Of a stretch of 64,000 bases of DNA, positions 10,607-57,715 are shown one piece after another. Under the pieces are notes generated by a model. It was not told where the DNA came from and ran no database searches. It was given only the letters and a program-made list of their open reading frames with translations. The stretch comes from an uncultured Planctomycetales bacterium (GTDB lineage Bacteria; Omnitrophota; Gorgyraeia; Zapsychrales; GWA2-47-8). The translations under genes were made by a program, and so were the position numbers. Every line of letters starts with the position of its first letter. The first letter of the stretch is position 1. The stretch spans positions 93,013 through 157,012 of the forward strand of contig CAZCLW010000002.1 in the NCBI GenBank assembly GCA_964499685.1. The letters run 5' to 3'.

Positions 10607-10678
10607 CTTTAATCCTATTTTCATCTTCCCTTAATCCTCCCTTTGGTAAAGTGAATTCAGCACGCTAAAGGAGGGGGT

Positions 10679-17948: not shown

Positions 17949-18353
17949 ATGAGTAATTCGGATATTGAAGAAAGCATCAAACAATATTTACTCAATTTAA
18001 AGACGTTGTATGGTGAGATTAAATCTATTTGGCTGATCGGCTCAAGAGCGAACAACGCTGCAACTGATAATTCGGATTGGGATTTTCTGCTCTTCGGGAG
18101 TAAAAATGTTTTCAGGGCGTTGCAAAATGATCAATCATTTAAAAGAGAAAAAATAGATTTACTTGTCGTGGATGAGGATGGGGAATTTAAAGATCCATGG
18201 CAAAATAAAAACGGCGATCTCGCCTCCTGGCGTTGGAAAAAACAATCAGAAAATACAGCAACTTATCGTTCTACAAAATTTATACCGGATGAGCCAGAGG
18301 GCGATTTGGGTACTTTTGAAGAGAAATGGTTTAAAGCTATAAGGATTTTATAA
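17949..18353 (+). CDS. Minimal nucleotidyltransferase (Pol-beta-type NTase fold)
   Basis: hG[GS]...DxD signature IWLIGSRANNAATDNSDWDFLLFG plus a downstream acidic LLVVDED. 134 aa. The region is strongly AT-rich relative to its flanks. Confidence 0.6.
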   Translation: MSNSDIEESIKQYLLNLKTLYGEIKSIWLIGSRANNAATDNSDWDFLLFGSKNVFRALQNDQSFKREKIDLLVVDEDGEFKDPWQNKNGDLASWRWKKQSENTATYRSTKFIPDEPEGDLGTFEEKWFKAIRIL

Positions 18354-18389
18354 GGATAAGGCATGCGCAATTAACTGGAGAGTCTTGAT

Positions 18390-19343: not shown

Positions 19344-19453
19344 AGAACCAATGGACAAGGAAGCAATAGTTTTTTGGATAAAAAACTGTGAAAGAACTTA
19401 CGTGGATATGCAAGAGATGCGCGCATAACAATTAATCATGCACTGAAATAAGA

Positions 19454-20479
19454 TTGATTATTCCCATGTCTGCCCAATTCCTTACCAAATCCTCCTATTT
19501 TAAGCTCCTCCATTCCATCTGCTCCGAAATGTCTTCCGGTCTCGCCCGCGTCGAGAAGCTCCTTGAGCGCCAGAAGGTCGTGACTTATTGGGAGATCGGC
19601 AGACACATCAACCGCTACCTGGCAAAAAACGCGCCGGTGCGGGGCAAGATTGGGTCATTTTATGACCGGCTCTCCGGCGATATCAAGGTCAGCGCCAGGA
19701 CACTTCAGCATTGTGAGCAATTTTTCCGCTATTTTCCCCGGTTGCCCAAAGCGGACGGCCTAAGCTGGTCGCATTACCGTTTTCTTCTGGTCCTGCCGGA
19801 GGAGAAGGAACGCCTAAGCTGGATCAACCGTATCCGGCGGGCCAATATTTCGGTCAATGACCTGCGGCTCGAACTGCTTTCCAAGACCGGAAGTTTGGAA
19901 GAAGAGGAAGGGCAGCGGCTCGATGGACCGCGCCGCGGCGCATTGTACACCTATCGTTTGCGCCGTGCCGAAGGCCTGGAAGGGGTCGGGGTGCCGTGGT
20001 TCGTGGATTGCGGGTTTTCCTGCCGCATTGAGGCGCCTCTATCCCGGAGCGCTTTGGAACTCAAATATATCTACACTTCGGAAAAAACAAAAGAGGGCTA
20101 CCGGCTCAAGGTGACCGATACACCGGCGGATGCGATCTATACCTACAAGGCCAAGATGCGCCGGGTGATCGACGGTGATTCGCTGCTCGTCGACGTGGAC
20201 CTGGGCTTCGGCATCTGGACCGAACAGCGTCTGCGCCTGCGGCTGATCGATACGCCTGAGCTTGATACTCTGGCCGGACAAAAGACCAAACGCTGGCTGG
20301 AGAATGAATTGAAGGACTGCCCCTTTGTCATCGTCAAGACGTACAAGAGCGATAAATATGACCGGTATCTCGTTGATGTATTTTATGCGCCCGGTGAGGA
20401 AGACGCACAAGCGGTTGCCGATGAAGGAACGTATCTGAACGGCCGGTTGGTGGAGTTGAAACTGGCCAAGCTCTGGTAA
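19454..20479 (+). CDS. Fusion protein: DUF1016_N (YhcG N-terminal-like) domain plus staphylococcal-nuclease (SNase/thermonuclease) domain
   Basis: N-terminal KVVTYWEIGRHI...LSWSHYRFLL resembles the YhcG N-domain. C-terminal RVIDGDSLLVDV...LRLRLIDTPE...KYDRYLVDV...GTYLNGRLVELKLA matches the SNase catalytic core. Confidence 0.55.
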   Translation: MIIPMSAQFLTKSSYFKLLHSICSEMSSGLARVEKLLERQKVVTYWEIGRHINRYLAKNAPVRGKIGSFYDRLSGDIKVSARTLQHCEQFFRYFPRLPKADGLSWSHYRFLLVLPEEKERLSWINRIRRANISVNDLRLELLSKTGSLEEEEGQRLDGPRRGALYTYRLRRAEGLEGVGVPWFVDCGFSCRIEAPLSRSALELKYIYTSEKTKEGYRLKVTDTPADAIYTYKAKMRRVIDGDSLLVDVDLGFGIWTEQRLRLRLIDTPELDTLAGQKTKRWLENELKDCPFVIVKTYKSDKYDRYLVDVFYAPGEEDAQAVADEGTYLNGRLVELKLAKLW

Positions 20480-30852: not shown

Positions 30853-30936
30853 GCCGCTTTTTCCTGATTTATTTTGACTTGAACGATGTCTTTGGATATA
30901 ATAGCCACATTATTCCCGCATCGGGAGGAGAAATTG

Positions 30937-31620
30937 ATGGCTTCCTCGCCTCATACAATCCGCTTGAATGACGTCGCGCTGTTCCAGGACCTTTCCGAGG
31001 GTGAACTTCAAGCCTTGTCGTCCTTCTTACAAGAAAATTCGTTTGAGAAAGATGAGATCATCGCCTTTGAAGGTGAAGAATGCCGTCGGATCTTCATCGT
31101 TCAGTCTGGACGCATAAAAATTTTCCGGTGCGCGGGCTCCGGCCGCGAGCAGATCCTGGAAGTCCTGGGCCCGGGCGATTCCTGTGCCTGTAATCCCGGC
31201 GTTCAGGTCTGGCAATGTTCGGCTACGTCGCAGGCCCTTTCCCCCTGCAAGGTGTGGTTTCTTCCACGCCAGCATTACAACAATCTGATCAATTCCAACT
31301 CCAAGCTCATGAAAAAGCTGACGCATATTTTTGCGACCCGTCTTTGCCGGTTCAGCTCGCTTATCGAGGATGTTTCCCTGACTGATTCCCGCCATCGCCT
31401 GGTCCGGTTCCTTTTGAACATGTTCGGGGCGCAAAAGGCGGTGCCGGGGAAACCCGTCTCGATCTCCTTTACCCGCGAAGAAATCGCGCAACGTCTGGGC
31501 CTTGTCCGCGAAACAGTGACCCGTCATCTGCAGAATTTAAGACGGAAAAAATTAATCGACATTAAAGCCCAACAGATCCTCCTACTGGACCGCCAAGGCC
31601 TTGAAAAACTGCTGGATTAA
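30937..31620 (+). CDS. CRP/FNR family transcriptional regulator
   Basis: cNMP-binding beta-barrel (EIIAFEGEECRRIFIVQSGRIKIF...GPGDSCA) and C-terminal HTH REEIAQRLGLVRETVTRHLQNLRRKKLI. RBS GGAGGAGAAAT. Confidence 0.8.
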   Translation: MASSPHTIRLNDVALFQDLSEGELQALSSFLQENSFEKDEIIAFEGEECRRIFIVQSGRIKIFRCAGSGREQILEVLGPGDSCACNPGVQVWQCSATSQALSPCKVWFLPRQHYNNLINSNSKLMKKLTHIFATRLCRFSSLIEDVSLTDSRHRLVRFLLNMFGAQKAVPGKPVSISFTREEIAQRLGLVRETVTRHLQNLRRKKLIDIKAQQILLLDRQGLEKLLD

Positions 31621-31755: not shown

Positions 31756-32271
31756 ATGAGGCAAAAAATAGAAATCCATCAGGAAAAGGCGCTCCAAACG
31801 GCCGACAGGCTTTATGAGGCTTTGCACAATCTTCGCTATGAAGGGAAAATATTTCTGAAAAGAAATATCAGGATCATCCAGGAAGCGGTCGATTTTTTTA
31901 AAGAGGAGCATATTTCTTATATACGGCTCGATGAGGAAGTCATTTTTCCGTTCCTACGGGTCCATATTCCCAAACTTGAACAAATGTTGGACGTGCTCCA
32001 GGCCGAGAATAACGAGTTCAGAGAAAAATTGGCCGAATTGGAAGGCCTTTTCCGCCAACTGAAGTCAGAAGCTTCGGACAGCGGCCGTTTCCGCAAGATC
32101 ATGGAAAACATCTGTGATCAGGGCACTTATCTATTCTGTCTGGTCCGGAATCACATGCAGGTCAAGGCGGAGGCCGTTTATAAGGTCATGGACCGGGAGC
32201 TGCATCAGGATGAGAAGCGCAGTCTTTACAAGAATATTGCGGATTTCACCGCCGGGATAAAAACGACCTAG
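31756..32271 (+). CDS. Hemerythrin-like (HHE cation-binding) domain protein
   Basis: Four-helix pattern with H...HxxxE and H....H spacing (EHISYIRLDEEVIFPFL, NHMQVKAEAVYKV). Confidence 0.45.
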   Translation: MRQKIEIHQEKALQTADRLYEALHNLRYEGKIFLKRNIRIIQEAVDFFKEEHISYIRLDEEVIFPFLRVHIPKLEQMLDVLQAENNEFREKLAELEGLFRQLKSEASDSGRFRKIMENICDQGTYLFCLVRNHMQVKAEAVYKVMDRELHQDEKRSLYKNIADFTAGIKTT

Positions 32272-32278
32272 AGGATCT

Positions 32279-33376
32279 ATGCGCATTATTGCCGTCGGCA
32301 CCAATCACAAAATCGCCCCTCTCGAAATAAGAGAAAAATTCTATCTTCAAAAGATCGAGCGCGAACTGCTGTTGAGCGCGTTACGCAATGACCCTTCCGT
32401 GGCCGAGGCGCTGGTCCTTTCGACTTGCAACCGTACGGAAATTTATGCCCATATCATCGATACCGGCCGGGTGGACCTTGTGTCCGCGCTTTTTAAGACC
32501 AAAGATATTGCTCCTAAAGATGAAGAGCGCTTGAGGCAATATTTTTACGTGTACGAGGATGAATCGGCTATCCGGCACCTTTTTTCCGTTTCCGCAGGCC
32601 TGGATTCGCTGATCGTGGGCGAAAAGCAAATTCTGGGACAGGTCAAGACCGCCGCGGAATTATCCCGGCAAATGGGCATGAGCGCCAAGGTATTCAATAT
32701 CCTGACCAATATGGCCATCCGGGCGGGCAAAAAAGCGCGGCATGAGACCGATATCGATGCCGGCGGGGCCTCCATCAGCTGGGCGGTGATGAAGACCGCG
32801 GAAAGACTTCTGGGTTCGCTCAAAGACCGGTCTGTCCTGATCGTCGGCGCCGGAAAAATGGGCAAACTGGCCATCAATTGCTTTGACGGGAAAGGCCTGA
32901 AACGCCTTTATGTCATGAACCGCAATCAGGAGAAGGCTGATGAAGTCGCTCTCCATTACGGTGATGTCCTGGCTGAACCTTTCTGGAAATTAAAGGATAT
33001 TTTGGCCGATGTCGATGTCTGCGTCTGTTCTACAAGCTGCCCGCATTATTTAGTGGAAGCGGGGCTGGCCGCACAAGTCATGTCCGGCCGCCGTGCCCGT
33101 CAGCTGATATTCATTGATATCTCCGTCCCCCGCAATATCGATCCGGCAATCGCCGGTCTGGCCAATGTCCGTTTGATCACGACGGACCATTTGACCGATG
33201 TTGTGCAAGGGAACTTGAAAAAACGTCAAGCCGCCGCCGGGAAGGTCGAAGCGATCATCGAAACTAAGTTGCATGATTTTTATAAAAAGATCATTAGGCG
33301 GGAACGTCCTACATATGTTCAGCCCGGAGGAGATCGCCCTGGAAAAGCCGCGATTTCAGGAAAGGAGTCAGTATGA
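32279..33376 (+). CDS. hemA: Glutamyl-tRNA reductase HemA
   Basis: MRIIAVGTNHKIAPLEIREK... with the invariant LSTCNRTEIY active-site motif, an NADPH Rossmann segment LIVGAGKMG and a dimerisation tail. 365 aa, which is short. Confidence 0.85.
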   Translation: MRIIAVGTNHKIAPLEIREKFYLQKIERELLLSALRNDPSVAEALVLSTCNRTEIYAHIIDTGRVDLVSALFKTKDIAPKDEERLRQYFYVYEDESAIRHLFSVSAGLDSLIVGEKQILGQVKTAAELSRQMGMSAKVFNILTNMAIRAGKKARHETDIDAGGASISWAVMKTAERLLGSLKDRSVLIVGAGKMGKLAINCFDGKGLKRLYVMNRNQEKADEVALHYGDVLAEPFWKLKDILADVDVCVCSTSCPHYLVEAGLAAQVMSGRRARQLIFIDISVPRNIDPAIAGLANVRLITTDHLTDVVQGNLKKRQAAAGKVEAIIETKLHDFYKKIIRRERPTYVQPGGDRPGKAAISGKESV

Positions 33377-34134
33377 CCGGAAAATCTACTGCCAAAATTT
33401 TAAGCTTATCGATCGGCTTTTTTGTGCTGCTCTTGGTGCCTCCGAGCGCCTTTTCTGACTCTAAGGAGCTTCCTCTTATGAAAGGGGCTACCTATGTCGG
33501 CATGGAAACCTGTGCCACCTGCCATGAAAAGGAGCATAAGGAGTATCTTCTTTCCACTCATGCGCGCATCAGTGTTAAGGATGACAAGACCGGACAGCCG
33601 CAGGACTGCGAAATGTGTCACGGTCCGGGAAGCGTTCACGTGGACGATGGGGAAGGCAGGAGAGGTACCATTATCAATCCGCGGAAGAATCCGGAAGTAT
33701 GTTTCAGCTGTCACATGGACAAGAAAATGGAATTTATGCTGCCGCACCGCCATCCTGTCCTTGAAGGAAAAATGAGCTGCGCGGACTGCCATTCCGCCCA
33801 TGGGACCGATGTCAGGCCTTGGTCGTCAACGACCATGGAGGGAGTAAATGAGCTTTGCTTCAAATGTCATAAAGAACAGCGCGGTCCATTTATCTTTGAG
33901 CATGAGGCCCTTCGTGAAGGTTGTACGACCTGCCATAAAGTGCACGGATCGATCAACGACAAAATGCTTTTAGCGCGGGACAGCAATCTTTGTTTACGCT
34001 GCCATGTGCAAACGAACTTTCCGTTCATCGGAGATAATAATCATAGCGGCCGGCTGTTCCGAGCCACCTGCTTCAGCGCCGGATGCCATACAGCCGCACA
34101 TGGATCTAATTTTGATGATCACTTGCGCTATTGA
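33373..34134 (+). CDS. Periplasmic multiheme c-type cytochrome (7 CxxCH plus 1 CxxxCH, octaheme-like; OmaB-like size)
   Basis: Signal peptide. Heme motifs CATCH, CEMCH, CFSCH, CADCH, CFKCH, CTTCH, CLRCH and CFSAGCH in 253 aa. The start overlaps the hemA stop. RBS AGGAAAGGAG. Confidence 0.8.
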   Translation: MTGKSTAKILSLSIGFFVLLLVPPSAFSDSKELPLMKGATYVGMETCATCHEKEHKEYLLSTHARISVKDDKTGQPQDCEMCHGPGSVHVDDGEGRRGTIINPRKNPEVCFSCHMDKKMEFMLPHRHPVLEGKMSCADCHSAHGTDVRPWSSTTMEGVNELCFKCHKEQRGPFIFEHEALREGCTTCHKVHGSINDKMLLARDSNLCLRCHVQTNFPFIGDNNHSGRLFRATCFSAGCHTAAHGSNFDDHLRY

Positions 34135-34147
34135 GAAGGAGGGTCCC

Positions 34148-36217
34148 ATGAGAAAAATTCCCCAATTTATTTTTACGGTCTTTGTGACGATAATGTCCTG
34201 CCATATGGCAGCCTCCCGCTCAATGGCCGAAGAGGAGGACAATCCCATCCATATTCTTTTAATGCCGGCCTACTATGCCTCGGTCAAAGGAGATGTGCAA
34301 AGGTTCCGTGCGCACACGTGGACTAATGACGGATATATGGGCGGCATCAAGGACCTGTGGGCCGATTATGTGCTGCCTAATGACACGAAGATGTCCTTTG
34401 AGGGGCATTATATCCATGGCAACGGGGACATCGGCGCCGATCTGCTTTTAAGCAACGAGAATATCGGGGATTTTAACGTCGATTACCACACCCTTCGCAA
34501 ATATTATGACGGATCCGGCGGGAGCTTTGCGCGCTTTCCCACGCTTCATACGCTGCAAACCAACAACGACCTTCAGATGGACATGGGCCATCTGGGGGTT
34601 ACCTTTGCGCCCACTTTAACGCTTGGGAGCTGGCATGATTTTGTGCTCGGCTATGAACACCATACCAAAGATGGGACCAAGTCCAGATTGTCCTGGGGGC
34701 AAGTAGTGGACCTTACGAACCGCAGCGTAGGCCCTTCATTCCAGGAGATCAGCGAGATATCAGACATCATCACGCTGCAAGGGCAAACGGAATTTGCCGG
34801 TTTCGATGTTACAGCCCGGCAACTGTATGAAATGACTTCCATCGATTCCATGAGGCAGGAACAAAATCTGGATACCTCCTCGACACCCAGTGCAAGCAAT
34901 CTGATACGTCAGCAGTATCAGCAGCCCTCGTCCGATACGGCCATGACGTTGTTGCATGGGGAAAAATGGTTCAACAAAGACAAGTCTTTTGTTTCCATGG
35001 CCTATCGTTTTCATAAGATCAATGCCAATGAATCGGAAGATCTTTATGAATTGAACAGCTTTAACGGCCAGCCCACCAATTACGGAACAAATGCCCACCA
35101 GCGCCGGGGCGCGGGGGCCGAGACTCATCTGGATTCCCACACTTTTTTGGGGAATTACAATACCAGACTGAGCAAAGATCTGAATTTTATCGCCAAACTG
35201 AAGACCGAGTACATCAAGCGGGACGGCAAGTCGATCTATCCATACGATCATCTCCCGGGCAACGGGGGGCTTCCCGATGGGACCATTGATGCGATTGATT
35301 ATAGCGAAAGCCGTCAATCCGCCCTGATCTGGGGGCAGAATCTCGGATTGCGTTACTCCGGGATTCCTAAAACCAGTCTCTATGCTGACGCCGATGTCTC
35401 GGAATCCAGAGGTAATATCCGCGAACAGCAGCAAAATATTACCAAGGTCCTGAACTGGGAAAGAGAAACAAACACCCACATCACTAAAGCGGCCTGGACG
35501 GTGGGCGGCAGATATGTTCCCATCAGCAAGTTCTACGGCACCCTCCAGTATCGGCACCGGCTGGAATTAAATAAGTATGAAGATAAGCGGGACACAGCCG
35601 GAACGATTAATTCTGCTTTCGTCGACCGGATGGACATTATTTCCGATGAACTTTCCACGAAGCTGAACTGGAAGCTTCACCAAAAAGTCCAGACAGCCTT
35701 CCGTTATCAACTGGCGGACCGTAATTATACGACCCGGGTGCAGGGCCAGCAAGAACAGGATGCGAAGGTCCTTTCGCATACCTTCACCTATGATGTCACT
35801 GTTCTTCCGGTGGAACGCTGGCTGCTGAACTTGTCGTTCTCACAGCAGAATTTAAAGACTTCTACAGCGGCAACCGCCTATGGTACGGCCGATTCGGTCC
35901 CCGGTTTTGTCGGGGATGTCCGGACGCTGCTTCTCGGTGCCAGCTACACAGCGACGGAAAGCCTGAACTATACCGGCTCAGCCTATTATTCCTGGACGGA
36001 TAATTTCGATGATTATTCCGTTTCCGGTTTGCCGTTGGGGCTGGACAGCGGGCATCTCGGAGTGGAATTGGGCGCACAGTGGAGGCCGACGAAGAACGAA
36101 GAAGACTTTTTGGTCGAGCCGCATTACGGCTATTATAGCTATGATGCCGACTCGGTGGTCGAACGGACAGCCTATAGCGCACATGTTCTGTGGCTCGACT
36201 TGTCATTGAAATGGTAA
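34148..36217 (+). CDS. Outer-membrane beta-barrel protein, MtrB/PioB-like porin of a putative porin-cytochrome conduit
   Basis: Signal peptide. 689 aa, rich in G/Y/T/N/S with alternating amphipathic strands, and a C-terminal ...LDLSLKW aromatic ending. It sits between two multiheme cytochromes. RBS GAAGGAGG. Confidence 0.45.
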   Translation: MRKIPQFIFTVFVTIMSCHMAASRSMAEEEDNPIHILLMPAYYASVKGDVQRFRAHTWTNDGYMGGIKDLWADYVLPNDTKMSFEGHYIHGNGDIGADLLLSNENIGDFNVDYHTLRKYYDGSGGSFARFPTLHTLQTNNDLQMDMGHLGVTFAPTLTLGSWHDFVLGYEHHTKDGTKSRLSWGQVVDLTNRSVGPSFQEISEISDIITLQGQTEFAGFDVTARQLYEMTSIDSMRQEQNLDTSSTPSASNLIRQQYQQPSSDTAMTLLHGEKWFNKDKSFVSMAYRFHKINANESEDLYELNSFNGQPTNYGTNAHQRRGAGAETHLDSHTFLGNYNTRLSKDLNFIAKLKTEYIKRDGKSIYPYDHLPGNGGLPDGTIDAIDYSESRQSALIWGQNLGLRYSGIPKTSLYADADVSESRGNIREQQQNITKVLNWERETNTHITKAAWTVGGRYVPISKFYGTLQYRHRLELNKYEDKRDTAGTINSAFVDRMDIISDELSTKLNWKLHQKVQTAFRYQLADRNYTTRVQGQQEQDAKVLSHTFTYDVTVLPVERWLLNLSFSQQNLKTSTAATAYGTADSVPGFVGDVRTLLLGASYTATESLNYTGSAYYSWTDNFDDYSVSGLPLGLDSGHLGVELGAQWRPTKNEEDFLVEPHYGYYSYDADSVVERTAYSAHVLWLDLSLKW

Positions 36218-36232
36218 GCGCTGGGTGACAGT

Positions 36233-37471
36233 ATGAATTCAAAAATGGATATTCCGGGAATCCATCCCTTTTGGGTGATCGGCATATCCATTTTTATTCT
36301 CTTTAACAGCACAAGCGCTCTTTCTCAGGAAGTGACCGGAAATTCCTGCGTGGATTGTCACGCCGATATGTGGGAAGAGATGAAGGACAGTGTCCATTCC
36401 CAGCAGCAGATTACGTGTCACCGCTGTCACGGCGGTGATCCTACAAAGGCCGATCAGGATGCCGCTAAAGCCCCGGAGACAGGATATATCGGCGTACCCG
36501 AAAAGAAACAGATCATGCAGATCTGTGGCGGATGTCATGCCGATGTGGAAGTCATGAATTTTTACGGTATCCGGACCGATCAGCTGGCGCAATATAAAAC
36601 GAGCCAGCACGGTAAAAGCCTGCTGGAGGGAAATAGCCGGGTCGCGGTCTGCAGCGATTGTCATGGTTACCACGACGTTCTCTCTGTCTCCGATCCCAAC
36701 AGCACGGTTTATGCCCTCAATCTTCCCAAAACCTGCAATAAATGTCACGGCAATGAGAAGATCATGAACCACTATGATCTGCCGACGGATATATTTGAAA
36801 AATACAAAAACAGCGTCCACGGCCGCGCCTTGTTCGAGAAAAAGGACACCGGTGTTGCGAATTGCGCCAGTTGCCACGGAAGTCACGGCGCGGTCCCGCC
36901 CGGTGTCAAGGACATCGGTGCAACCTGCGGAAAATGCCACGTGAACGAAAAAAACAATTTTTTGGAAAGCGTTCATGCGAAGGTCGTGGAACAGGGCAAA
37001 TTTTCTGAATGTGTTTCCTGCCACAGTAACCACGAGGTCGCTCCGGCGAATGTTGCCATGTATGATCATGTGTGTGCCCAATGTCATCAGCCGCAAAGCC
37101 CCGCCTTTCAGGTAGGCCAGAGGATCCACGACCTCCTGCAGCGGTCCGAAAATGAGCTCTCTGAAACGACCATGATCGTCAAGCAGGCGGCCATCGAAGG
37201 TATTTTTGTGGAGGAAGAAGAGGGTTTATTGGAAGAAGCCAAGACCAAGGTCGTGGAAATGCAGCCTTTGCAGCACACATTGTCTTATCAGAAGTTAGCT
37301 GAAGTTTACGGCCAGGCTGAGGCCAGGACGACTGAGATAAAGAAGATGATCGCCGATAAACGGCAAGGATTAAAATGGCGCAAGATAGCACTTATCCCTA
37401 TCTGGATATTTGTCTTTATCATGAGCTGGGCTTTGATCATGAAATACAAACAACTTAAAGGACATGGATAA
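36233..37471 (+). CDS. Nonaheme c-type cytochrome with C-terminal TM anchor
   Basis: Nine CxxCH motifs (CVDCH, CHRCH, CGGCH, CSDCH, CNKCH, CASCH, CGKCH, CVSCH, CAQCH). N-terminal signal/anchor and a C-terminal TM helix WRKIALIPIWIFVFIMSWALIM. Confidence 0.8.
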   Translation: MNSKMDIPGIHPFWVIGISIFILFNSTSALSQEVTGNSCVDCHADMWEEMKDSVHSQQQITCHRCHGGDPTKADQDAAKAPETGYIGVPEKKQIMQICGGCHADVEVMNFYGIRTDQLAQYKTSQHGKSLLEGNSRVAVCSDCHGYHDVLSVSDPNSTVYALNLPKTCNKCHGNEKIMNHYDLPTDIFEKYKNSVHGRALFEKKDTGVANCASCHGSHGAVPPGVKDIGATCGKCHVNEKNNFLESVHAKVVEQGKFSECVSCHSNHEVAPANVAMYDHVCAQCHQPQSPAFQVGQRIHDLLQRSENELSETTMIVKQAAIEGIFVEEEEGLLEEAKTKVVEMQPLQHTLSYQKLAEVYGQAEARTTEIKKMIADKRQGLKWRKIALIPIWIFVFIMSWALIMKYKQLKGHG

Positions 37472-37925
37472 ACCTTTACCGACACAGTATGCAGGAGCCC
37501 CTAAGGCTGTTTCCCGCCGTGATTTTTTAAGCTGGCTGATCAAGTGCGGTCTTTTTGTGACGCTGTCGAGCATGATCATGCCGGCCTTGGCGTATCTTTG
37601 GCCCGTCACCCGACGCGGGCCCGCCGGAGGGATGAATGATATCGGGGGCGAGGAGGACTTTCCGGAATGGGGATCGAAGAAAGTGATCCTGGGTGGCAGT
37701 GCGATCCTGGTGATACGCACGCCGCAGGGGTTTAAGGCGTTTTCCGCGATCTGTACACATCTGGGATGCCTGGTCCACTGGGATAATAAAAAACGTGAGA
37801 TCGTCTGTCCTTGTCACGCGGGTTTGTTTGATATGGAAGGGCGGGTGGTGGCTGGCCCGCCTCCGCGGCCGCTTCCGTCCCTGCCGGTCAGCGTGGTCAA
37901 CGGCCGTGTCATGGTGAAAGTATAA
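37464..37925 (+). CDS. Rieske [2Fe-2S] iron-sulfur protein of a cytochrome bc/b6f-type complex (TAT substrate)
   Basis: Twin-arginine motif SRRDFLSWL. Rieske boxes CTHLGCLVHW and CPCHAGLFD. Confidence 0.85.
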   Translation: MDKPLPTQYAGAPKAVSRRDFLSWLIKCGLFVTLSSMIMPALAYLWPVTRRGPAGGMNDIGGEEDFPEWGSKKVILGGSAILVIRTPQGFKAFSAICTHLGCLVHWDNKKREIVCPCHAGLFDMEGRVVAGPPPRPLPSLPVSVVNGRVMVKV

Positions 37926-37934
37926 AGGAAAACG

Positions 37935-39077
37935 ATGTTTAAGGCGAAGATCCTGGACTGGCTGGACAAACGCTTTGATCTTAAAAAGATCGAAGAGCCG
38001 CTCCGTTATCAGGTCGAGAAACCGCTGCCGAAAAATATCGGTTGGTTCCATACGCTGGGAAGCATGTCGCTCTTTCTCTTTATCAGTCAGGTCCTCACTG
38101 GGATCCTGTTGCTGGTCTATTATCGTCCGACGGTGGACGAGGCTTTCGAGAGCGTCAAATTCATTATGACCAAGCCTTATCTAGGATGGCTGTACCGGCA
38201 GATCCATGCGTGGGGTGCCAACCTCATGGTCATCATTGTTTTTCTGCACATGCTCCGGACATTTTTTACCGGTTCCTTCAAGAAGCCGCGGGAATTGACT
38301 TGGATCATAGGCGTATTTTTGTTTATCCTGACGCTTGTTTTCGGTTTTACAGGATATCTTTTGCCGTGGAACCAGCTGGCTTATTGGGCCACGACCGTCG
38401 GAACGGAAGTCGCCGGCGCCATACCCTTTGTGGGTGAAGGCATGAAAACATTTATGCGCGGCGGGAGTTCCGTGGGTGCGGAAACTTTATCGCGGTTCTT
38501 TGTCATTCATGTGATCATTCTACCCTGGCTGGTATTCTTTTTGATCATGGTGCACCTGGTACTGGTGCGCTATCAGGGCATTGCCACCATGGACCCTGTC
38601 GGAGAAGAGCAGGAGACCAAGAAGGGCGAAGGCACGCCCTTCTTCCCGCACCATGTCCTGAAAGAGGGGGTGGTCTGGTTCATCCTGCTGGGTGTCCTTG
38701 TGACTTTGTCCATTCTCATGCCTTTTGAGCTGGGAGAAAAGGCCGATCCGCTGAAGACGCCGGAGGGGATCAAGCCGGAATGGTATTTTCTCCCGATGTA
38801 TCAGGTCCTGAAATATTTTTCTAAACTGCTAGGGATCTTTGTGGTGACCTTGGCGCCTATTTTTCTTTTTCTCTGGCCGTTCCTGGATAAGACTAAATTT
38901 CGTCATCCGGCCAGGAGGTCCGTTTCCGTTATGATCGGAATTTTGGTATTATTATCATTGCTTATTTTTGGCATCCTAGGCCATCTCTCGGAAAGCAAGA
39001 GAGAGTTTTTTGGTAAAACGTATGAATTTGATATTTACGGCATTCCGCACGAAGTGAAGCCGGGTGCCGATCATTAA
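37935..39077 (+). CDS. Cytochrome b6 fused to subunit IV (PetB-PetD fusion, b6f-type cytochrome b)
   Basis: YYRPTVDEAFESVKFIMT, KKPRELTW, LPWNQLAYWATTVGT, RGGSSVGAETLSRFF and VRYQGIA are near-identical to cyt b6 blocks. C-terminal PEWYFLPMYQVLKYF is the subunit IV block. Confidence 0.85.
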   Translation: MFKAKILDWLDKRFDLKKIEEPLRYQVEKPLPKNIGWFHTLGSMSLFLFISQVLTGILLLVYYRPTVDEAFESVKFIMTKPYLGWLYRQIHAWGANLMVIIVFLHMLRTFFTGSFKKPRELTWIIGVFLFILTLVFGFTGYLLPWNQLAYWATTVGTEVAGAIPFVGEGMKTFMRGGSSVGAETLSRFFVIHVIILPWLVFFLIMVHLVLVRYQGIATMDPVGEEQETKKGEGTPFFPHHVLKEGVVWFILLGVLVTLSILMPFELGEKADPLKTPEGIKPEWYFLPMYQVLKYFSKLLGIFVVTLAPIFLFLWPFLDKTKFRHPARRSVSVMIGILVLLSLLIFGILGHLSESKREFFGKTYEFDIYGIPHEVKPGADH

Positions 39078-39102
39078 ATGCGTTCTCAAAACGGGAGGTC
39101 TT

Positions 39103-39639
39103 ATGAAATTACCGCTCATGGTCATTTGTTTTATCATGGTTTTATCGTGCCGTTCCGATGCCCAGACCGAACCGCCCCAACATGAGTTTGTGGGCGCGGC
39201 CAAGTGCGCGCTGTGCCATAAAAAACCGGAACAGGGCGAGCAGTACCGTATATGGCAGGAATCGAAGCATGCCAAGGCGCTCGAAACTTTAAAGACGCCT
39301 GAGGCCAAAGAGATCGCGGCCAAACAGGGCATTGATGACCCGGCGACCAGCGGAAAATGTTTGAAATGCCATTCCACTGCCTATTGGTTCTCGGAAAATA
39401 AGGTGACGGAAGCTATTGCCGTCGAAGAAAGCATCTCCTGCGAAACCTGCCATGGTCCGGGCAAGGATTACATGAAAAAGAGTATTATGGAAGACCGGGA
39501 CGAGTCCATCGCCAATGGCCTGATTATCCCCACCGAAGAGACGTGCCTGAAATGCCATAATCAGGAATCCCCGACGTATAAGCCTTTTAATTTCAAGGAA
39601 AGATGGGAAAAGATCAAGCATCCCGTTCCCGAGAAATAA
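39103..39639 (+). CDS. Tetraheme c-type cytochrome (periplasmic)
   Basis: Signal peptide. CALCH, CLKCH, CETCH, CLKCH. RBS GGGAGGTCTT. Confidence 0.75.
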   Translation: MKLPLMVICFIMVLSCRSDAQTEPPQHEFVGAAKCALCHKKPEQGEQYRIWQESKHAKALETLKTPEAKEIAAKQGIDDPATSGKCLKCHSTAYWFSENKVTEAIAVEESISCETCHGPGKDYMKKSIMEDRDESIANGLIIPTEETCLKCHNQESPTYKPFNFKERWEKIKHPVPEK

Positions 39640-39746: not shown

Positions 39747-41264
39747 ATGCCACCAGACAATGAACCGGCCGCCCCTCAGCGCCGACGATTCTCAATTTAT
39801 TTCTATAATTACATAACGTATGCCGGTATATTTTTGAGCTTGGCGATCTTTACGGCCGAGCTCTTTCTTTTCGGGCTTGATTTTTTTACCGGTTCCACCA
39901 ATGTCTATCTCGGCATTCTCACCTACTGTTTTCTCCCCATCTTTTTGATCATCGGGCTGATCCTGATCCCGGCCGGGGCCTTATGGAAAAGAAGGCGTAT
40001 TCTGAAGGGGCTGGCTGACTGGAGACCGAAGAAGCTGCTGATCGATCCTGCCATTCCCAGTCACCGTAATGCCCTTTTTATTTTTTCGATCGGCACTATC
40101 ATTCTCATTGTTATGTCCGCCGTCGGCGCTTATAAAGCTTTTCAGTATACGGAGTCGGTGCATTTTTGCGGGATCGTCTGCCATAAGATCATGATCCCCG
40201 AATATACGACCTATCTTAATTCGCCGCATGCGCGGGTCAAATGTGTGGAATGTCACATCGGGGAAGGGGCGACATGGTATATGAAATCCAAGGTCTCCGG
40301 TGCCAGGCAGGTGCTGCGCATGCTGACTAATACGTATGAAAAACCAATCGCCTCGCCGGTCCATAATCTGCGCCCTTCAGAACAGACCTGCGAACATTGC
40401 CATTGGCCGGGCAAGTTCTACGGGTCTTCTGAAATAAGGAAGACGTATTATGCCCGCGATGTGGAAGAACCGCGCAAATGGTTTTTACGCATGTTGATGC
40501 ATGTTGGGCGGAGCGAGAACGAAGACTACGGGATCCATGCCCATATGTACGTAGATAATGAGATCTATTATGCGGCCGAAGACGACCGCCGCCAGAAGAT
40601 CACCTGGATCAAAAGCGTGGACAAAAAAGGCCAGGAGACCATTTTCACGACATCAAAATCCAAATTCAAGGACCAGGAGCCGCCGCCGGAGGCCATCCGC
40701 AAGATGGATTGCATTGATTGCCATAATCGGCCCACTCACCGTTTCGAACCGCCCTATAAGTTGGTCAATGCCGCCTTGCTCGCCAACGAAATCGATCCGG
40801 AGATCCCGAATATCAAGTCTAAGCTCATGGATGTTTTGGGCGCCCAATATACAAGCACGCAGGAAGCGGAAGAAAAGATCCGGCAAAAGCTCCGCGATTA
40901 CTATACGCAAAAACAGGCCGAATTTTATGGAAGCCATCAGGCCAAGGTCGAGCAAGCGATCGAAAAGGCGGTGGAGATCTTCAAGAATAACTTCTTCCCG
41001 GCGATGGAGGCCCGATGGGATACGCATTATAACAATATCGGACATCTCTGGTCGAACGGCTGTTTCCGGTGTCACGACGGAGAGCATCGCTCTTCCGACG
41101 GAGAGGTGATCAGCCGGGATTGCAACATTTGCCATACGATCATTGAGCAGGGGCCGGTCGATGCGCTGCAGACCGACACCAAGGGTCTTCCCTTTGTGCA
41201 CCCCTTTGAAGACGACGGCGCCTGGCAGGAAATGAACTGTTCGGATTGTCATACGGGCAATTGA
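39747..41264 (+). CDS. Membrane-anchored multiheme cytochrome c, NapC/NirT/NrfH-like (heptaheme)
   Basis: Three N-terminal TM helices, then CGIVCH (CxxxCH), CVECH, CEHCH, CIDCH, CFRCH, CNICH and CSDCH. The NSPHARVKCVECH arrangement is typical of the quinol-dehydrogenase NapC/NrfH class. Confidence 0.7.
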   Translation: MPPDNEPAAPQRRRFSIYFYNYITYAGIFLSLAIFTAELFLFGLDFFTGSTNVYLGILTYCFLPIFLIIGLILIPAGALWKRRRILKGLADWRPKKLLIDPAIPSHRNALFIFSIGTIILIVMSAVGAYKAFQYTESVHFCGIVCHKIMIPEYTTYLNSPHARVKCVECHIGEGATWYMKSKVSGARQVLRMLTNTYEKPIASPVHNLRPSEQTCEHCHWPGKFYGSSEIRKTYYARDVEEPRKWFLRMLMHVGRSENEDYGIHAHMYVDNEIYYAAEDDRRQKITWIKSVDKKGQETIFTTSKSKFKDQEPPPEAIRKMDCIDCHNRPTHRFEPPYKLVNAALLANEIDPEIPNIKSKLMDVLGAQYTSTQEAEEKIRQKLRDYYTQKQAEFYGSHQAKVEQAIEKAVEIFKNNFFPAMEARWDTHYNNIGHLWSNGCFRCHDGEHRSSDGEVISRDCNICHTIIEQGPVDALQTDTKGLPFVHPFEDDGAWQEMNCSDCHTGN

Positions 41265-41333: not shown

Positions 41334-42173
41334 ATGAAAAAATATTATTTCAGTCAGTATTTTCTTTCTATGGCCTGTACGTTCCTGCTCTTGGCGGGAT
41401 GTGAGCGGTCTCCCGTTGTGCGCGCGTACACCGAGATCACGCTTGCGCCCGAAAGCTCCCCTAAAAAACCTTCCGGTCCCAATGCCTTCCCTAAAGGCAT
41501 GATGCCCGAGGATGACATCCATAAGGATTTGATGCCCCAGGACGACATTCATAAAGGCCTGATGCCGCAAGATGATATTCACACCGGATTGATGCCTCAG
41601 GATGATATCCGCACGGGGCTGATGCCCGACGATGACATCCATCGGGGCATTACGGCGCAGGGCCAAGCGCCTGCCGGTATGGATATGAAGAACATGGCTC
41701 TTGATCCCCGGCTCAATGATTCCGTCGACAGAACACCCTTAAAGTGGACAACGCCGGAAGGGTGGTTGGAGAGCAAAGGGAGCGGAATGCGCCTGGCCAC
41801 ATTCGTCCATACCGATAAAAACAATCCTATTGAAGTGAGCATTATTTCCCTGGGCGGTTCGGCCGGAGGATTATCGGGCAATATTGTCCGCTGGATGCAG
41901 CAGATCAATGTCCCGGTGCCGGCGGGGGCGGAATGGGAGCGATTTATGGGCCGGCAGGAAAATTTTAAGACCGTTTCCGGCTTGCCGGTTGTGCTGATCG
42001 ACTTTACCGAATTGCAAAAAGAACAAAAGGGGGATGCCCCTAGCATGATGGCGGCCGTTATTGACCGGCAGGACGCTCAGATCTTCATCAAGATGACCGG
42101 CAGCAAGCAGGCGGTCATTGCGAGCCGCGCTGCTTTCCGATCGCTGGCCGAATCGATCGAGGTGAGAGAATAA
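41334..42173 (+). CDS. Lipoprotein with five tandem decapeptide repeats (LMPQDDIHKG-like) and a C-terminal globular domain
   Basis: Lipobox LLAGC. Repeats MMPEDDIHKD / LMPQDDIHKG / LMPQDDIHTG / LMPQDDIRTG / LMPDDDIHRG are encoded by a 30-bp tandem DNA repeat. Confidence 0.5.
   Translation: MKKYYFSQYFLSMACTFLLLAGCERSPVVRAYTEITLAPESSPKKPSGPNAFPKGMMPEDDIHKDLMPQDDIHKGLMPQDDIHTGLMPQDDIRTGLMPDDDIHRGITAQGQAPAGMDMKNMALDPRLNDSVDRTPLKWTTPEGWLESKGSGMRLATFVHTDKNNPIEVSIISLGGSAGGLSGNIVRWMQQINVPVPAGAEWERFMGRQENFKTVSGLPVVLIDFTELQKEQKGDAPSMMAAVIDRQDAQIFIKMTGSKQAVIASRAAFRSLAESIEVRE
41501..41650 (+). repeat. 5 x 30-bp imperfect in-frame tandem repeat (GATGCCNNANGANGANATNCANANNGGNNT)
   Basis: Direct inspection: units begin at 41501, 41531, 41561, 41591 and 41621. 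Confidence 0.85.
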
Positions 42174-42174
42174 G

Positions 42175-43338
42175 ATGAAGGATTTCCGTCAAAAATTCCG
42201 TCGAAATAAAGCCGTAAAACTTCTGACTTCGGTCAAATTGACCGTTGTTTTCCTTTTACTGCTTTTTATTCTTACGCTCTGGGGGACCGTGGCCCAAGTG
42301 CACCAGGGGCTCTATCTGGCGCAAGACAGATATTTTCATTCTTTTTTCTTTTTGGCGATGGGATTTTTGCCGTTTCCCGGCGGACAGCTGGTCATGTGGG
42401 CGCTCTTTTTCAATCTGGTCGCGGTGGCGATCTTCCGTTTGAATTATAAGTGGCGCCATGCCGGTATTATCATCATCCATTTCGGGCTTTTATCGTTCCT
42501 GGTTGCGGGATTCGTGACCATGCGATGTGCTAAAGAAAGTTTTCTCATGCTGCTCGAAGGTCATGCCTCGAATGTTTCCTCGGCTTATCATGAATGGGAG
42601 ATTTCTTTTTGGAAGGATCAGTCTCCGACCCCGGCAGGCAAAGAGGAGCGGAATATTATTGCGGTCAGTACGGCGGCCTTTAAGCCAGGCCGGACGGTCC
42701 ATGTGGATGAATTAGACCTTAAACTGACGGTCAAAGAATATTGCCGCAATTGCGAAGCCTTTGTGGGGAGCGGATTGGAGGCCCTGAACGCGTCCGGTAT
42801 CCAGCGTCTGAAGTCCGTGCCGCTGTCCAAAGAGCCGGAAAGAAACGTTCCCGGCGGTGTCTTTCAGATGGAAACATCCGGCGGACGTCATTATGATGTA
42901 TTGCTGTTCGGGAATGAATCCAAACCGACCGCCATTGAGATAAACGGTGTTGCTTACAATGTGATCCTGCGCCTGCAACGATATCCGCTTCCCTTTACGC
43001 TAAGACTGGTTGATTTTATGATGGAAAAACATCCCGGGACCAATACGCCGCGCGCCTTCAAGAGCCTGGTATCCATCGAGACCGGCGGCGCCTGGCGGGA
43101 TAAGCTGATCTCCATGAACAATCCTTTGCGTTATAAAGATTTCACGCTGTATCAGGCTTCTTACCAGATCGATGAGTTGGGCCGGGAATTTTCAACCCTG
43201 GCTGTCGTAAAAAATGTAGGGCGCATTTTACCGTATGTATCAACCTTTGTGACCTTTGGAGGTCTGGCTCTTCATTTTATTATGATGGCCTTCACCGCCA
43301 GGAAAGGTGTCGAGTCGCCGTATGTGGGCAGCGAATAA
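42175..43338 (+). CDS. ccsB: Cytochrome c biogenesis protein ResB/CcsB (System II)
   Basis: N-terminal TM, periplasmic domain, and the conserved C-terminal block ISMNNPLRYKDFTLYQASYQ characteristic of ResB. Confidence 0.8.
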   Translation: MKDFRQKFRRNKAVKLLTSVKLTVVFLLLLFILTLWGTVAQVHQGLYLAQDRYFHSFFFLAMGFLPFPGGQLVMWALFFNLVAVAIFRLNYKWRHAGIIIIHFGLLSFLVAGFVTMRCAKESFLMLLEGHASNVSSAYHEWEISFWKDQSPTPAGKEERNIIAVSTAAFKPGRTVHVDELDLKLTVKEYCRNCEAFVGSGLEALNASGIQRLKSVPLSKEPERNVPGGVFQMETSGGRHYDVLLFGNESKPTAIEINGVAYNVILRLQRYPLPFTLRLVDFMMEKHPGTNTPRAFKSLVSIETGGAWRDKLISMNNPLRYKDFTLYQASYQIDELGREFSTLAVVKNVGRILPYVSTFVTFGGLALHFIMMAFTARKGVESPYVGSE

Positions 43339-45265
43339 GAAGGTATCTATTGTGTTTAAAGGCTTTTTATTGACGGCCGTTTTGACCGCGGGCTTGTTTC
43401 CCCCGTCGACATTAGGCGCGCAGGCCATTTGTCCGCTGGATACGCGGAAACCGCAAAAGATCGGATCGTTGGACGTTTTCAAACGGATCCCAGTCCTCAA
43501 CGAAGGCCGGATCAAACCGATGGAGACGTATGGACAGAATTTATTGTTGCTCCTCTCCGGGAAAAAGCGCTATGAAAAAGAGTCAGGTGCCGAGTGGTTT
43601 GCCCGCTTTTTATTTGCCCCCCGTACGACATATAATGACCGGATCTTCCTTATCAATAATTCCGAGATCCCCGAGGCCCTCGGCATCCATCCGGATAAAA
43701 AGCGCCGGTACAGCTTCAGGGACATCGAGCCCGCGTATGGTAAATTAGAACAGTTGGCCCAAGCCTCCCGGAAGATCGACGAGAAAAGCCAATCCGTGGT
43801 TGAGAAAGAGATCCTGAGGCTTTATAACAATGTCTTTATCTATGTCCAGCTCTCCGGCGCCATGCTGTATGCGGTCCCGCATCCGGATTTTGCGATCGGA
43901 TCGGCAGAGGTCATTGAGCGGCTGCAGCTGCCCAAGGAAGAGAATACCTTCAGTTTTTTTGATCTCATCGAAAGAAGCCAGCTGCTGCACAAAGCGACCG
44001 AAGGTTTGGAAACCAAAAAACAGAGCGAATGGACCGAAGAGGACAAGATCCTGGCGCGGTTAATGAACGCGATCTTTTTCTGGGCCGAGCATTACGCCGA
44101 TTGTCCGTTCGGCCTGATCCCGTCCCAGGATGAGCAGGATGAACACTGGTTAAGCCCCATGGACGTCATCCTTTCCCGTTTTTCGGATCCGGCCTATCAT
44201 GAGGCCATTAAGAATGCCAGGGACATGACCCTGGCCTATTGGAACGGCGCCCAATTGGAGTTTGATCTGGCCGGCCGGGCCTTTATGAACTCGGTCTCCA
44301 AGGTCTATTCGGTCAAAGAGCAGCAGGCCGTCTCCAAGATCCCGCTTGAGCTGCTTTATAACAAACTGAACTTATTTTTTTGGGCCAAAGTTTTTTACGG
44401 TGCGGCTATTTTTCTTTTCTTATTTTCGCTGATGTCCGAGAGAAAGTGGCTCTATCCCGCAGCGGTCGCCGTTGTTGTCGCCGGTTTTATTCCTCATGCC
44501 GCGGCGCTGTTTCTGCGTATCGCCATTTTGTCCCGGCCGCCGGTCAGCAATCTCTATGAAACGTTTATTTTTGTCGGCTTGATCAGCGCCCTTTTAGGTT
44601 TATTGCTGGAATTCTTCAACCGGAACTGGCTGGGCATCATTGTGGCAGCTGTCAGCGGGTTTACTTTTCTGCTGATCTCCGGTAAATTTGCCGTCGAGGG
44701 TGATACCATGCAGATGCTGGTTGCTGTCTTAAATTCTAATTTCTGGCTGAGCACACACGTCTTGGCCATTACCATAGGATATGCTGGATGCAGTGTTGCC
44801 GGGGTTTTGGGGCATGTATACATTTTGCAGGCCATGGCCAGACCCAACGACAAAAAGCGGCTGGAAGGGACCTATAAGAACATGATGGGGATCCTTGGTT
44901 TCGGTTTGACGATGACCTTTTTGGGGACCATGCTGGGCGGGATATGGGCAGACCAGTCCTGGGGCCGTTTTTGGGGCTGGGACCCGAAAGAGAACGGTGC
45001 CCTATTGATCGTCCTGTGGTCGGCGATCATCTTTCACGCCCGCTTGGCCAAGTTTATCAATCCGCTGGGCGCTGCGGTCGGTTGCGTTTTCGGTCTGGTC
45101 GTTGTGATGTGGGCCTGGTTCGGCGTGAATTTATTAAGCGTGGGCCTGCATTCCTATGGATTTACGTCCGGCATCGCCTTTGCTCTGGGTGCTTATGTCG
45201 TGGCCGAATTGGTTTTTGTGGCCGTGGCCGGCCTTGTCCTTGGCAAAAAAAATATTAAATTTTGA
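43322..45265 (+). CDS. ccsA: Cytochrome c biogenesis protein CcsA/ResC with long N-terminal periplasmic extension
   Basis: WWD heme-handling motif WADQSWGRFWGWDPKENGALLIVLW plus conserved His residues. About 330 extra N-terminal residues. The start is uncertain: GTG at 43307, ATG at 43322, or GTG at 43352 with an AAGAAGG RBS. Confidence 0.8.
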   Translation: MWAANKKVSIVFKGFLLTAVLTAGLFPPSTLGAQAICPLDTRKPQKIGSLDVFKRIPVLNEGRIKPMETYGQNLLLLLSGKKRYEKESGAEWFARFLFAPRTTYNDRIFLINNSEIPEALGIHPDKKRRYSFRDIEPAYGKLEQLAQASRKIDEKSQSVVEKEILRLYNNVFIYVQLSGAMLYAVPHPDFAIGSAEVIERLQLPKEENTFSFFDLIERSQLLHKATEGLETKKQSEWTEEDKILARLMNAIFFWAEHYADCPFGLIPSQDEQDEHWLSPMDVILSRFSDPAYHEAIKNARDMTLAYWNGAQLEFDLAGRAFMNSVSKVYSVKEQQAVSKIPLELLYNKLNLFFWAKVFYGAAIFLFLFSLMSERKWLYPAAVAVVVAGFIPHAAALFLRIAILSRPPVSNLYETFIFVGLISALLGLLLEFFNRNWLGIIVAAVSGFTFLLISGKFAVEGDTMQMLVAVLNSNFWLSTHVLAITIGYAGCSVAGVLGHVYILQAMARPNDKKRLEGTYKNMMGILGFGLTMTFLGTMLGGIWADQSWGRFWGWDPKENGALLIVLWSAIIFHARLAKFINPLGAAVGCVFGLVVVMWAWFGVNLLSVGLHSYGFTSGIAFALGAYVVAELVFVAVAGLVLGKKNIKF

Positions 45266-54896: not shown

Positions 54897-54908
54897 CAGG
54901 AGATCATC

Positions 54909-57703: not shown

Positions 57704-57715
57704 AGAGAAGGAATT

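Follow-up and report, generated by a model that had tools for sequence, protein, structure and literature searches.

A gene string in a 64,000-nucleotide stretch of DNA from an uncultured Planctomycetales bacterium (contig CAZCLW010000002.1, positions 93,013 to 157,012; the whole stretch is called the window) is likely to encode a two-component electron conduit across the outer membrane. This putative conduit is of the MtrAB/MtoAB/PioAB/OmcKL kind and is tied to an ImcH-type cytochrome. Porin-cytochrome conduits are the route by which Gram-negative bacteria exchange electrons with minerals, electrodes, and partner cells. A sequence-only reading of the window had flagged three consecutive co-oriented genes as a conduit of three parts: an octaheme cytochrome (cytA), a 689-residue barrel protein, and a nonaheme cytochrome (cyt9). 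All three open reading frames (ORFs) were found on the plus strand, with hemA upstream and Rieske and cytochrome b genes downstream, as that reading had described. The first two are a probable porin-cytochrome pair, a part of the proposal that is carried by the homology of cytA to MtrA, the model of the barrel, and the adjacency of the two genes in 23 of 23 loci; cyt9 did not hold as the third part. According to the ORF listing, the genes from hemA to ccsA form a single, tightly packed string on the plus strand that holds all three flagged ORFs:

32279-33376, plus strand: hemA, short glutamyl-tRNA reductase (TIGR01035, 334 bits, cutoff 209)
33373-34134, plus strand: cytA, putative periplasmic octaheme MtrA/OmcK-like cytochrome (253 residues, signal-peptide-like N terminus, eight heme motifs)
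34148-36217, plus strand: predicted outer-membrane beta-barrel of MtrB-like fold, a sequence orphan (689 residues, AlphaFold2 model)
36233-37471, plus strand: cyt9, nonaheme cytochrome with a C-terminal transmembrane anchor (412 residues, nine CxxCH)
37464-37925, plus strand: Rieske iron-sulfur protein (Pfam Rieske; b6f-type Rieske models matched below their cutoffs)
37935-39077, plus strand: cytochrome b, fused b6 and subunit IV (Pfam Cytochrome_B and Cytochrom_B_C)
39064-39639, plus strand: cyt4, tetraheme c554-like cytochrome (four CxxCH, Pfam Cytochrome_C554)
39747-41264, plus strand: ImcH-like, putative inner-membrane heptaheme quinol/quinone oxidoreductase (505 residues, three N-terminal transmembrane helices, CX3CH plus six CxxCH)
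41334-42173, plus strand: p279, lipoprotein with five tandem MPxDDIHxxL repeats (279 residues, lipobox LLAGC)
42175-45265, plus strand: ResB and CcsA, System II cytochrome c maturation (Pfam ResB and Cytochrom_C_asm)

The stop codon of hemA and the start codon of cytA overlap by 4 nucleotides (nt), an overlap through which hemA is translationally coupled to cytA. The cyt9 stop and the Rieske start overlap by 8 nt, and the intergenic gaps measure 13 nt between cytA and the barrel gene, 15 nt between the barrel gene and cyt9, and 9 nt between the Rieske and cytochrome b genes. All 26 CxxCH motifs present in ORFs of at least 60 residues in the six frames of the window lie within four genes of this string. 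The expectation from composition is about 0.001-0.002 CxxCH per protein, and the clustering is thus far above chance. Scans for promoters and terminators gave signals not above shuffled background and were uninformative on operon boundaries.

CytA contains seven CxxCH motifs plus one atypical CFSAGCH, i.e. CX4CH; the earlier count of eight motifs stands, with the correction that the last one had been given as CxxxCH. The CX4CH motif was kept in 19 of 20 cytA homologs, the lone exception being a masked sequence. Most homologs retained the octaheme count, four had nine motifs, and the C terminus HGSNFD[DE]HLRY was conserved among them. Judged by its alignment with MtrA of the solved Mtr complex (6R2Q_A, E = 2.7e-33), in which MtrA residues 62-168 and 173-325 were covered, cytA is a clear MtrA homolog. 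The strongest stretch was MtrA 173-325, the C-terminal half. This half of MtrA is embedded in the barrel, hydrogen-bonds to the MtrB interior, and ends at the externally exposed heme A10 (PMC7198977). Because the two partial MtrA alignments share cytA residues 100-144, two central hemes of MtrA appear to be absent from cytA. Against curated models, cytA scored 160.7 bits (E = 4.4e-47, cutoff 192.2) with the MtrA/DmsE decaheme family TIGR03508 and 177.9 bits (cutoff 325) with NF041028, the family of GSU2203, which is OmcK (PMC4070692).

The barrel ORF starts with ATG at 34148, 6-7 nt after AGGAGG. Its product has an N-terminal signal-like segment, a single cysteine, no heme motif, and the C terminus ...LSLKW. 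Neither this protein nor 10 relatives gave a Pfam match at E ≤ 0.01, MtrB_PioB included, and in the 689 residues Pfam detected neither a plug domain nor a TonB-dependent receptor. The sole curated match was to the OmcL/GSU2204 family NF041027 (32.5 bits, E = 4e-8, cutoff 350); it was limited to residues 317-472, and the CXXCH motif that belongs to the definition of that family is also missing from the barrel. An AlphaFold2 model was built from a 10-sequence alignment (mean pLDDT, the predicted local distance difference test score, 75.9). As evident from this model, the protein is almost all beta, with 27 strand elements of which two are contiguous, consistent with a 26-strand barrel. A Foldseek search of the PDB with the model returned MtrB (6r2q_B) as the top match (E = 3.6e-10, template-modeling (TM) scores 0.52/0.55), clearly apart from the TonB-dependent transporters that came next with TM scores of at most 0.41. 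Thus, the 689-residue protein is predicted to be a large plugless beta-barrel of about 26 strands, and a resemblance to MtrB at the level of the modeled fold is supported; membership in MtrB/PioB by sequence is not. Because the sequence gives no link to MtrB/PioB, the resemblance rests on a model of medium confidence (pLDDT 75.9). The claim that the second gene encodes a large outer-membrane beta-barrel was borne out to this extent, the model being a beta-barrel, not a soluble repeat protein, with MtrB as its best solved match.

Gene order was compared in related loci, designated by L numbers. A scan of one genome per species yielded 20 loci, and 11 more came from look-ups of exact proteins; 26 were unique after de-duplication. 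In all 23 loci with enough upstream DNA, a cytA homolog lay directly upstream of the barrel gene, including L019, in which the two genes are separated by about 485 nt. These 23 loci are mostly from Omnitrophota, with three more divergent ones, and the pairing persisted at barrel identities of 22-24%. Homologs of the barrel gene thus do adjoin a multiheme, MtrA-like cytochrome gene. No candidate surface multiheme lipoprotein was encoded beside the cytA-barrel pair in any of the 26 loci, and for this reason the conduit is described as two-component, like MtoAB and PioAB. The cytA-barrel pair of the window also matches, if weakly, GSU2203/GSU2204, i.e. Geobacter OmcK/OmcL, itself a putative porin-cytochrome pair, which lends further support. 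A monoheme cytochrome c gene directly followed the barrel gene in four loci (L019, L020, L029, and L030), and in L029 and L030 the order was cytA, barrel, monoheme cytochrome c, and an ImcH-like gene. The L029 contig also encodes a PSCyt1/PSCyt2/PSD1 protein, typical of planctomycetes.

Some observations weigh against assigning the pair to a conduit. CytA stays below both the DmsE and the GSU2203 cutoffs and has eight hemes, not 10. Moreover, two sequence profiles of the barrel (A1 and A2) recovered no PDB chain even at E = 10, so that MtrB was not found by this approach.

The barrel belongs to a sizable family. Word-indexed homolog searches found 11 and 17 relatives, all unnamed or labeled hypothetical, and an exhaustive profile search retrieved 846 metagenomic cluster representatives at E ≤ 1e-3, 352 of them at E ≤ 1e-30. 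Among the long contigs with the module are JAJVIE010000003.1 (Omnitrophota, 1.59 Mb) and the planctomycete-like CAZPVD010000001.1 (1.12 Mb). By record title, 12 of the 20 scan loci were from Omnitrophota/Omnitrophica, mostly from groundwater, aquifer, or deep-mine samples; the others were "uncultured Planctomycetales" or "Planctomycetia" (six), "uncultured bacterium" (one), and "uncultured Actinomycetota" (one). Among 120 full-length members of the top 150, 92 were plain barrels without CxxCH, and 28 had an N-terminal extension, 26 of which contained CxxCH within the first 280 residues. Pfam PSCyt1 was matched in five of six extended members scanned. The family is therefore linked to cytochromes in two independent ways, by an adjoining MtrA-like gene and by a fused PSCyt1 domain. 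It appears to be a new, sequence-orphan barrel family, so far restricted to Omnitrophota and planctomycete-like contigs. The PSCyt1-fused proteins form a sister branch of about 770-914 residues (P0011, P0093, P0108, P0112, P0158, and others; locus L028), comparable, with a large barrel, to the fused cytochrome-porin Cyc2 and to OmcL.

The most constant partner of the conduit had been overlooked in the sequence-only reading: it is the ImcH-like cytochrome encoded at 39747-41264. Counterparts were located at most 10 kb away in about 15 of the 19 loci with sufficient flanking DNA. The protein has hydrophobic segments at residues 23-48, 50-82, and 107-132, followed by CGIVCH at residue 141 and then six CxxCH motifs, and it matches the NapC/NirT N-terminal region in Pfam. 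ImcH has been defined as a protein of about 495-519 residues with three N-terminal transmembrane helices, CX3CH beside transmembrane helix 3, and five to nine CX2CH motifs (PMC6295460). The 505-residue product conforms to this definition, and its motif spacing equals that of the 505-residue Omnitrophica ImcH homologs tabulated in the same survey (PMC6295460). We designate the protein ImcH-like; its sequence match covers the NapC/NirT N-terminal region only. In L005 (16860-21690), two CbcL/MtoC-like genes (953 and 646 residues, multiheme plus Ni_hydr_CYTB) come after the ImcH-like gene, so that one outer-membrane conduit in that locus is backed by several quinone-linked cytochromes of the inner membrane.

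These components can be arranged into a working scheme. We infer that cytA would be threaded through the barrel of about 26 strands and would form with it a chain of hemes that reaches from periplasm to cell surface. The ImcH-like protein would exchange electrons with the quinone pool and connect the conduit to it; in this genome, a bc complex may, through cyt9, make a further connection between the heme chain and the quinone pool. Either cyt4 or a monoheme cytochrome could serve as periplasmic relay, cyt4 being the likely one here. HemA would supply heme, which ResB and CcsA would attach. If translation of cyt4 starts at ATG 39103, its N terminus reads MKLPLMVICFIMVLSC, lipobox included, and cyt4 is then probably a lipoprotein. 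Homologs of cyt4 were found in L008, where a lipobox is also present, and in L009 and L031.

The direction of electron flow through this conduit can be read in two ways, and genes located further downstream bear on the choice:

53844-58261, plus strand: gene set for a membrane protein, a NasC-like molybdoenzyme, a 4Fe-4S protein, and a Rieske protein, preceded by NnrS
58536-59813: NarK
60798-61961: NirK

We tentatively favor uptake of electrons from extracellular Fe(II) or reduced minerals, to which we give nearly an even chance. Periplasmic cytochromes would then receive the electrons and hand them to NirK and to other reductases of N-oxides, with the bc complex and ImcH linking this flow to the quinone pool. 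Consistent with uptake, the window has N-oxide genes for NirK (336 bits, above the cutoff), a NarK-family transporter, a NasC-like molybdoenzyme, and NnrS, and related loci contain NnrS, NosL, or NIR_SIR. The lack of a surface multiheme lipoprotein gene in 26 of 26 loci points the same way, as do variants that resemble mto clusters, especially L029 and L030. The mto clusters of Sideroxydans and Gallionella comprise mtoA, mtoB, mtoD, and cymA or mtoC (PMC6295460). Several points speak against uptake. The N-oxide genes are 7-17 kb away, with unrelated genes in between; all experimental knowledge of ImcH concerns its activity as a quinol oxidase in metal reducers, and the survey found ImcH in Fe(III) reducers only (PMC6295460). 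The CbcL-like genes of L005 adjoin an ImcH-like gene as in the outward chain of Geobacter, and MtrAB alone can reduce soluble Fe(III) chelates (PMC7198977).

The same conduit could instead work outward, in an anaerobic respiration whose acceptor would be Fe(III) in soluble or chelated form, Mn(IV), humic substances, or a partner cell. Quinol would be oxidized by ImcH, and by the bc complex via cyt9, and electrons would flow from cyt4 to cytA and out through the barrel. We regard outward flow as a serious though less probable reading. It is favored by the ImcH architecture, given that ImcH is, by experiment, a quinol oxidase for high-potential extracellular acceptors (PMC6295460), by the position of the two CbcL-like genes in L005, and by the OmcK (GSU2203) model as the top score of cytA. 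In an Fe(III)-reducing bacterium, hematite and magnetite induce both OmcK and GSU2204 (PMC4070692), and MtrAB remains able to reduce soluble Fe(III) when MtrC is missing (PMC7198977). On the other side, none of the 26 loci encodes a surface-exposed multiheme cytochrome. We know of no characterized mineral-reducing conduit that lacks such a cytochrome in its own cluster. A bc-type complex would also be expected to require an acceptor whose potential lies above that offered by most Fe(III) minerals, and some variant loci resemble the mto cluster (mtoA, mtoB, mtoD, cymA).

The uptake reading has a broader form, namely that Omnitrophota and planctomycete-like bacteria of the Planctomycetes-Verrucomicrobia-Chlamydiae (PVC) group carry a self-contained electron-uptake module that feeds periplasmic N-oxide reductases and, via the bc complex and ImcH, leads toward the quinone pool. 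We consider this doubtful. If it were true, members of a phylum mostly seen as nanobacteria that depend on hosts would live in groundwater as lithotrophic iron oxidizers dependent on nitrate or nitrite, and ImcH-type cytochromes would be shown to act as quinone reductases.

A reading without any conduit would make the 689-residue protein a common channel for solutes or uptake and would leave cytA as a mere carrier in the periplasm that serves the bc complex and a NirK chain; the string would then be a respiratory and cytochrome-biogenesis operon with no electron transfer across the outer membrane. This is improbable. Against it stand the lack of a Pfam match to a plug domain or to a TonB-dependent receptor and the Foldseek ranking, in which MtrB is clearly set apart from the transporters. 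Further points against it are the strict pairing of the barrel with an MtrA homolog across deep divergence, the relatives with a fused cytochrome domain, and the best alignment of cytA, which is with the barrel-embedded half of MtrA.

It is more improbable still that the conduit is a three-part one of the MtrCAB/Pcc type with nonaheme cyt9 as the outer or extracellular partner of the barrel: cyt9 has nine hemes and a signal peptide and lies 15 nt behind the barrel gene in the window (it follows the barrel also in L008, L009, and L025), but it has no lipobox, a conserved alpha-helical C-terminal transmembrane anchor, no match to the MtrC/OmcA family among the curated models, and a stop codon that overlaps the Rieske start, and it is absent wherever Rieske and cytochrome b are absent.

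Cyt9 was correctly described as a nonaheme cytochrome with N- and C-terminal hydrophobic segments, and its role as an outer partner as in MtrCAB/OmaB-OmbB-OmcB was not sustained, since it tracks the bc genes. The N-terminal segment corresponds to a signal-peptidase-I-type signal, and the C-terminal hydrophobic helix spans residues 383-405. Cytochrome c1 and cytochrome f share this topology of a cleavable signal and a C-terminal helix. The surface cytochromes of conduits that have been characterized are, to our knowledge, lipoproteins. Homologs of cyt9 showed 33-59% identity and kept the nine CxxCH motifs and the C-terminal transmembrane helix. They were present in seven of the eight loci with Rieske and cytochrome b, the eighth contig ending inside cytochrome b, and in none of the loci without these two genes. 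In L004, L005, L014, and L021, the order was barrel ... Rieske, cytochrome b, cyt9, with cyt9 downstream of cytochrome b and not beside the barrel. A comparison with solved structures gave a single weak and uninformative match. Because it lacks a lipobox, has a C-terminal transmembrane helix, and occurs only together with Rieske and cytochrome b, cyt9 is best assigned, on the strength of its sequence and distribution, as the c subunit of the bc complex and not as an MtrC/OmcB-like surface cytochrome. The components of a bc/b6f-type complex are then all encoded: a Rieske protein, a di-heme cytochrome b with a subunit-IV region, and cyt9 as the membrane-anchored c-type subunit. Cytochrome b matched NF002990 with 246 bits and cytb_ExtP, the Geobacter ExtP model, with 233 bits. 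As the cutoffs of curated equivalog models were not reached, the complex appears to be of a divergent type. In L004/L026 (13259-18758; Omnitrophota), a Qrc-like or alternative complex III (ACIII)-like set stands between the barrel gene and the genes for Rieske, cytochrome b, cyt9, and the ImcH-like protein; it consists of a small c3-type cytochrome, a molybdopterin-family subunit, a 4Fe-4S subunit, and an NrfD-type membrane subunit.

Among known systems, the module is closest to MtoAB/PioAB in function, to MtrAB in structure, and to OmcK/OmcL by curated-model score, and it stays below the membership thresholds of all these families alike. MtoAB (with MtoD and CymA/MtoC; Sideroxydans and Gallionella) and PioAB (Rhodopseudomonas) likewise combine an MtrA-type cytochrome with a large barrel. 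They, too, have no surface cytochrome gene, and their genes lie together with one for a cytochrome of the inner membrane that is linked to quinones and of NapC/NirT or related type (PMC6295460), and the small monoheme cytochrome c of the MtoAB systems recurs in several relatives of this module. The differences are that cytA of the window has eight hemes instead of 10 and a conserved CX4CH as its last motif, that the barrel is undetectable as MtrB/PioB by sequence, that the inner-membrane partner is ImcH-type (three transmembrane helices, seven hemes) rather than CymA or CbcL/MtoC, and that the module is hosted by Omnitrophota and planctomycete-like bacteria and not by Proteobacteria. With MtrCAB of Shewanella (6R2Q) the module shares a cytochrome homologous to MtrA and a barrel whose model is nearest to the 26-strand MtrB (PMC7198977), whereas an MtrC-like decaheme lipoprotein, two of the hemes, and any sequence similarity of the barrel are missing.

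OmcK/OmcL (GSU2203/GSU2204) of Geobacter sulfurreducens provides the best curated-model matches for both cytA and the barrel. Together with homologs in HotSeep-1 and Seep-SRB2, this pair has been proposed as a porin-cytochrome conduit without a third partner (PMC10553843). In contrast to OmcK/OmcL, the window proteins score far below the cutoffs of 325 and 350, and OmcK has 10 hemes. OmcL itself contains a CXXCH motif. The window barrel does not, and similarity to OmcL on this point is confined to the PSCyt1-fused sister branch. The OetABI conduit of syntrophic sulfate reducers was also considered and rejected, as no evidence ties the barrel to OetI (PMC10553843).

The layout of a conduit next to Rieske and cytochrome b genes had been called undescribed. 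This was only partly right, because a comparable arrangement exists in the Geobacter extHIJKLMNOPQS cluster (Cbc6-type), where a porin-like gene, multiheme cytochromes, Rieske, cytochrome b, and a tetraheme lipoprotein cytochrome occur together (PMC5877670). ExtI, however, is a small phosphate-porin-like protein of 45 kDa and not an MtrB-like barrel, and that cluster is without an MtrA-type cytochrome, ImcH, or hemA. ImcH of G. sulfurreducens resembles the window protein in length (505 versus 495-519 residues), in its three transmembrane helices with CX3CH beside helix 3, in the six CxxCH motifs, and in the NapC/NirT-like region. A 2018 survey found no mtrAB or mtoAB genes beside imcH (PMC6295460); here and in about 15 related loci, unlike in that survey, an MtrA-like/barrel pair adjoins the ImcH-like gene. 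This systematic adjacency, which for the first time consistently ties an outer-membrane conduit to an ImcH-type cytochrome at the genetic level, is apparently new, and so, it appears, is the conserved octaheme partner with a terminal CX4CH.

Surveys find conduits mostly via homology to MtrB/PioB or to Geobacter porins. The present barrel family escapes such searches because it has no Pfam model, its members are labeled hypothetical, and there is no sequence similarity to MtrB. Our literature search on this cluster in Omnitrophota returned only a general FeGenie statement that Omnitrophica metagenome-assembled genomes carry iron-cycling genes (PMC8478452). If the module is functional, the iron and mineral redox cycling of aquifers would have to include Omnitrophota. 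With hemA, the conduit, the link to the quinone pool, and Ccs maturation side by side, the module is compact and thus an appealing candidate for heterologous tests.

The hemA gene of the window covers positions 1-333 of the 416 positions of the TIGR01035 profile, the C-terminal dimerization region being absent. Short hemA was found upstream of the cytA-barrel pair in 13 of the 26 unique loci, and the conduit-linked hemA of the window and these 13 loci is a short form of 348-388 residues throughout. Two further genes precede the string:

30886-31620, plus strand: Crp/Fnr-family regulator (Pfam cNMP_binding and HTH_Crp_2)
31756-32271, plus strand: hemerythrin-domain protein (Pfam Hemerythrin, E = 5e-8; ends 7 nt before hemA)

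The regulator has homologs of 43-54% identity on the upstream side of the module in L001, L009, L011, L012, L020, and L023. The hemerythrin-domain gene is kept in L009, L011, and L020, and its product is possibly a sensor of O2, nitric oxide, or iron.

At the other end of the string, the five p279 repeats are decapeptides of the form MP(E/Q/D)DDI(H/R)xxL in perfect register. A gap of 1 nt separates the p279 gene from resB, and in L009, too, the gene is linked to ResB and CcsA; its product had no match to Pfam or the curated models. One possible role for this product is that of an accessory protein which binds heme or metal in System II cytochrome maturation. ResB/CcsA genes were linked to the module in L009 and L031 as well. 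In L031, a cysG-N-like gene (NAD_binding_7) and hemC come directly after the barrel gene (10150-11714), with hemA, ResB, and CcsA upstream, so that the synthesis and the attachment of heme are joined with the conduit in one block.

The gene set at 53844-58261 includes a polytopic membrane protein of 350 residues without a family and a 4Fe-4S dicluster protein. The NasC-like nitrate-reductase-type subunit has no twin-arginine translocation (Tat) signal and scored 854 bits against a cutoff of 1100, and the Rieske protein, the second of the window, has the Tat-like motif RRDFIRYLG. An Rfam scan of the window detected two tRNAs only, far upstream of the string; their genes, at 2337-2409 on the plus strand and 3977-4049 on the minus strand, flank a 513-residue ORF without a family match. 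The GC content dips to 0.41 at 18001-20000, compared with about 0.51-0.55 elsewhere; this segment, which contains a 317-residue unassigned ORF and a DUF1016/nuclease-like ORF, may be a small foreign insert.

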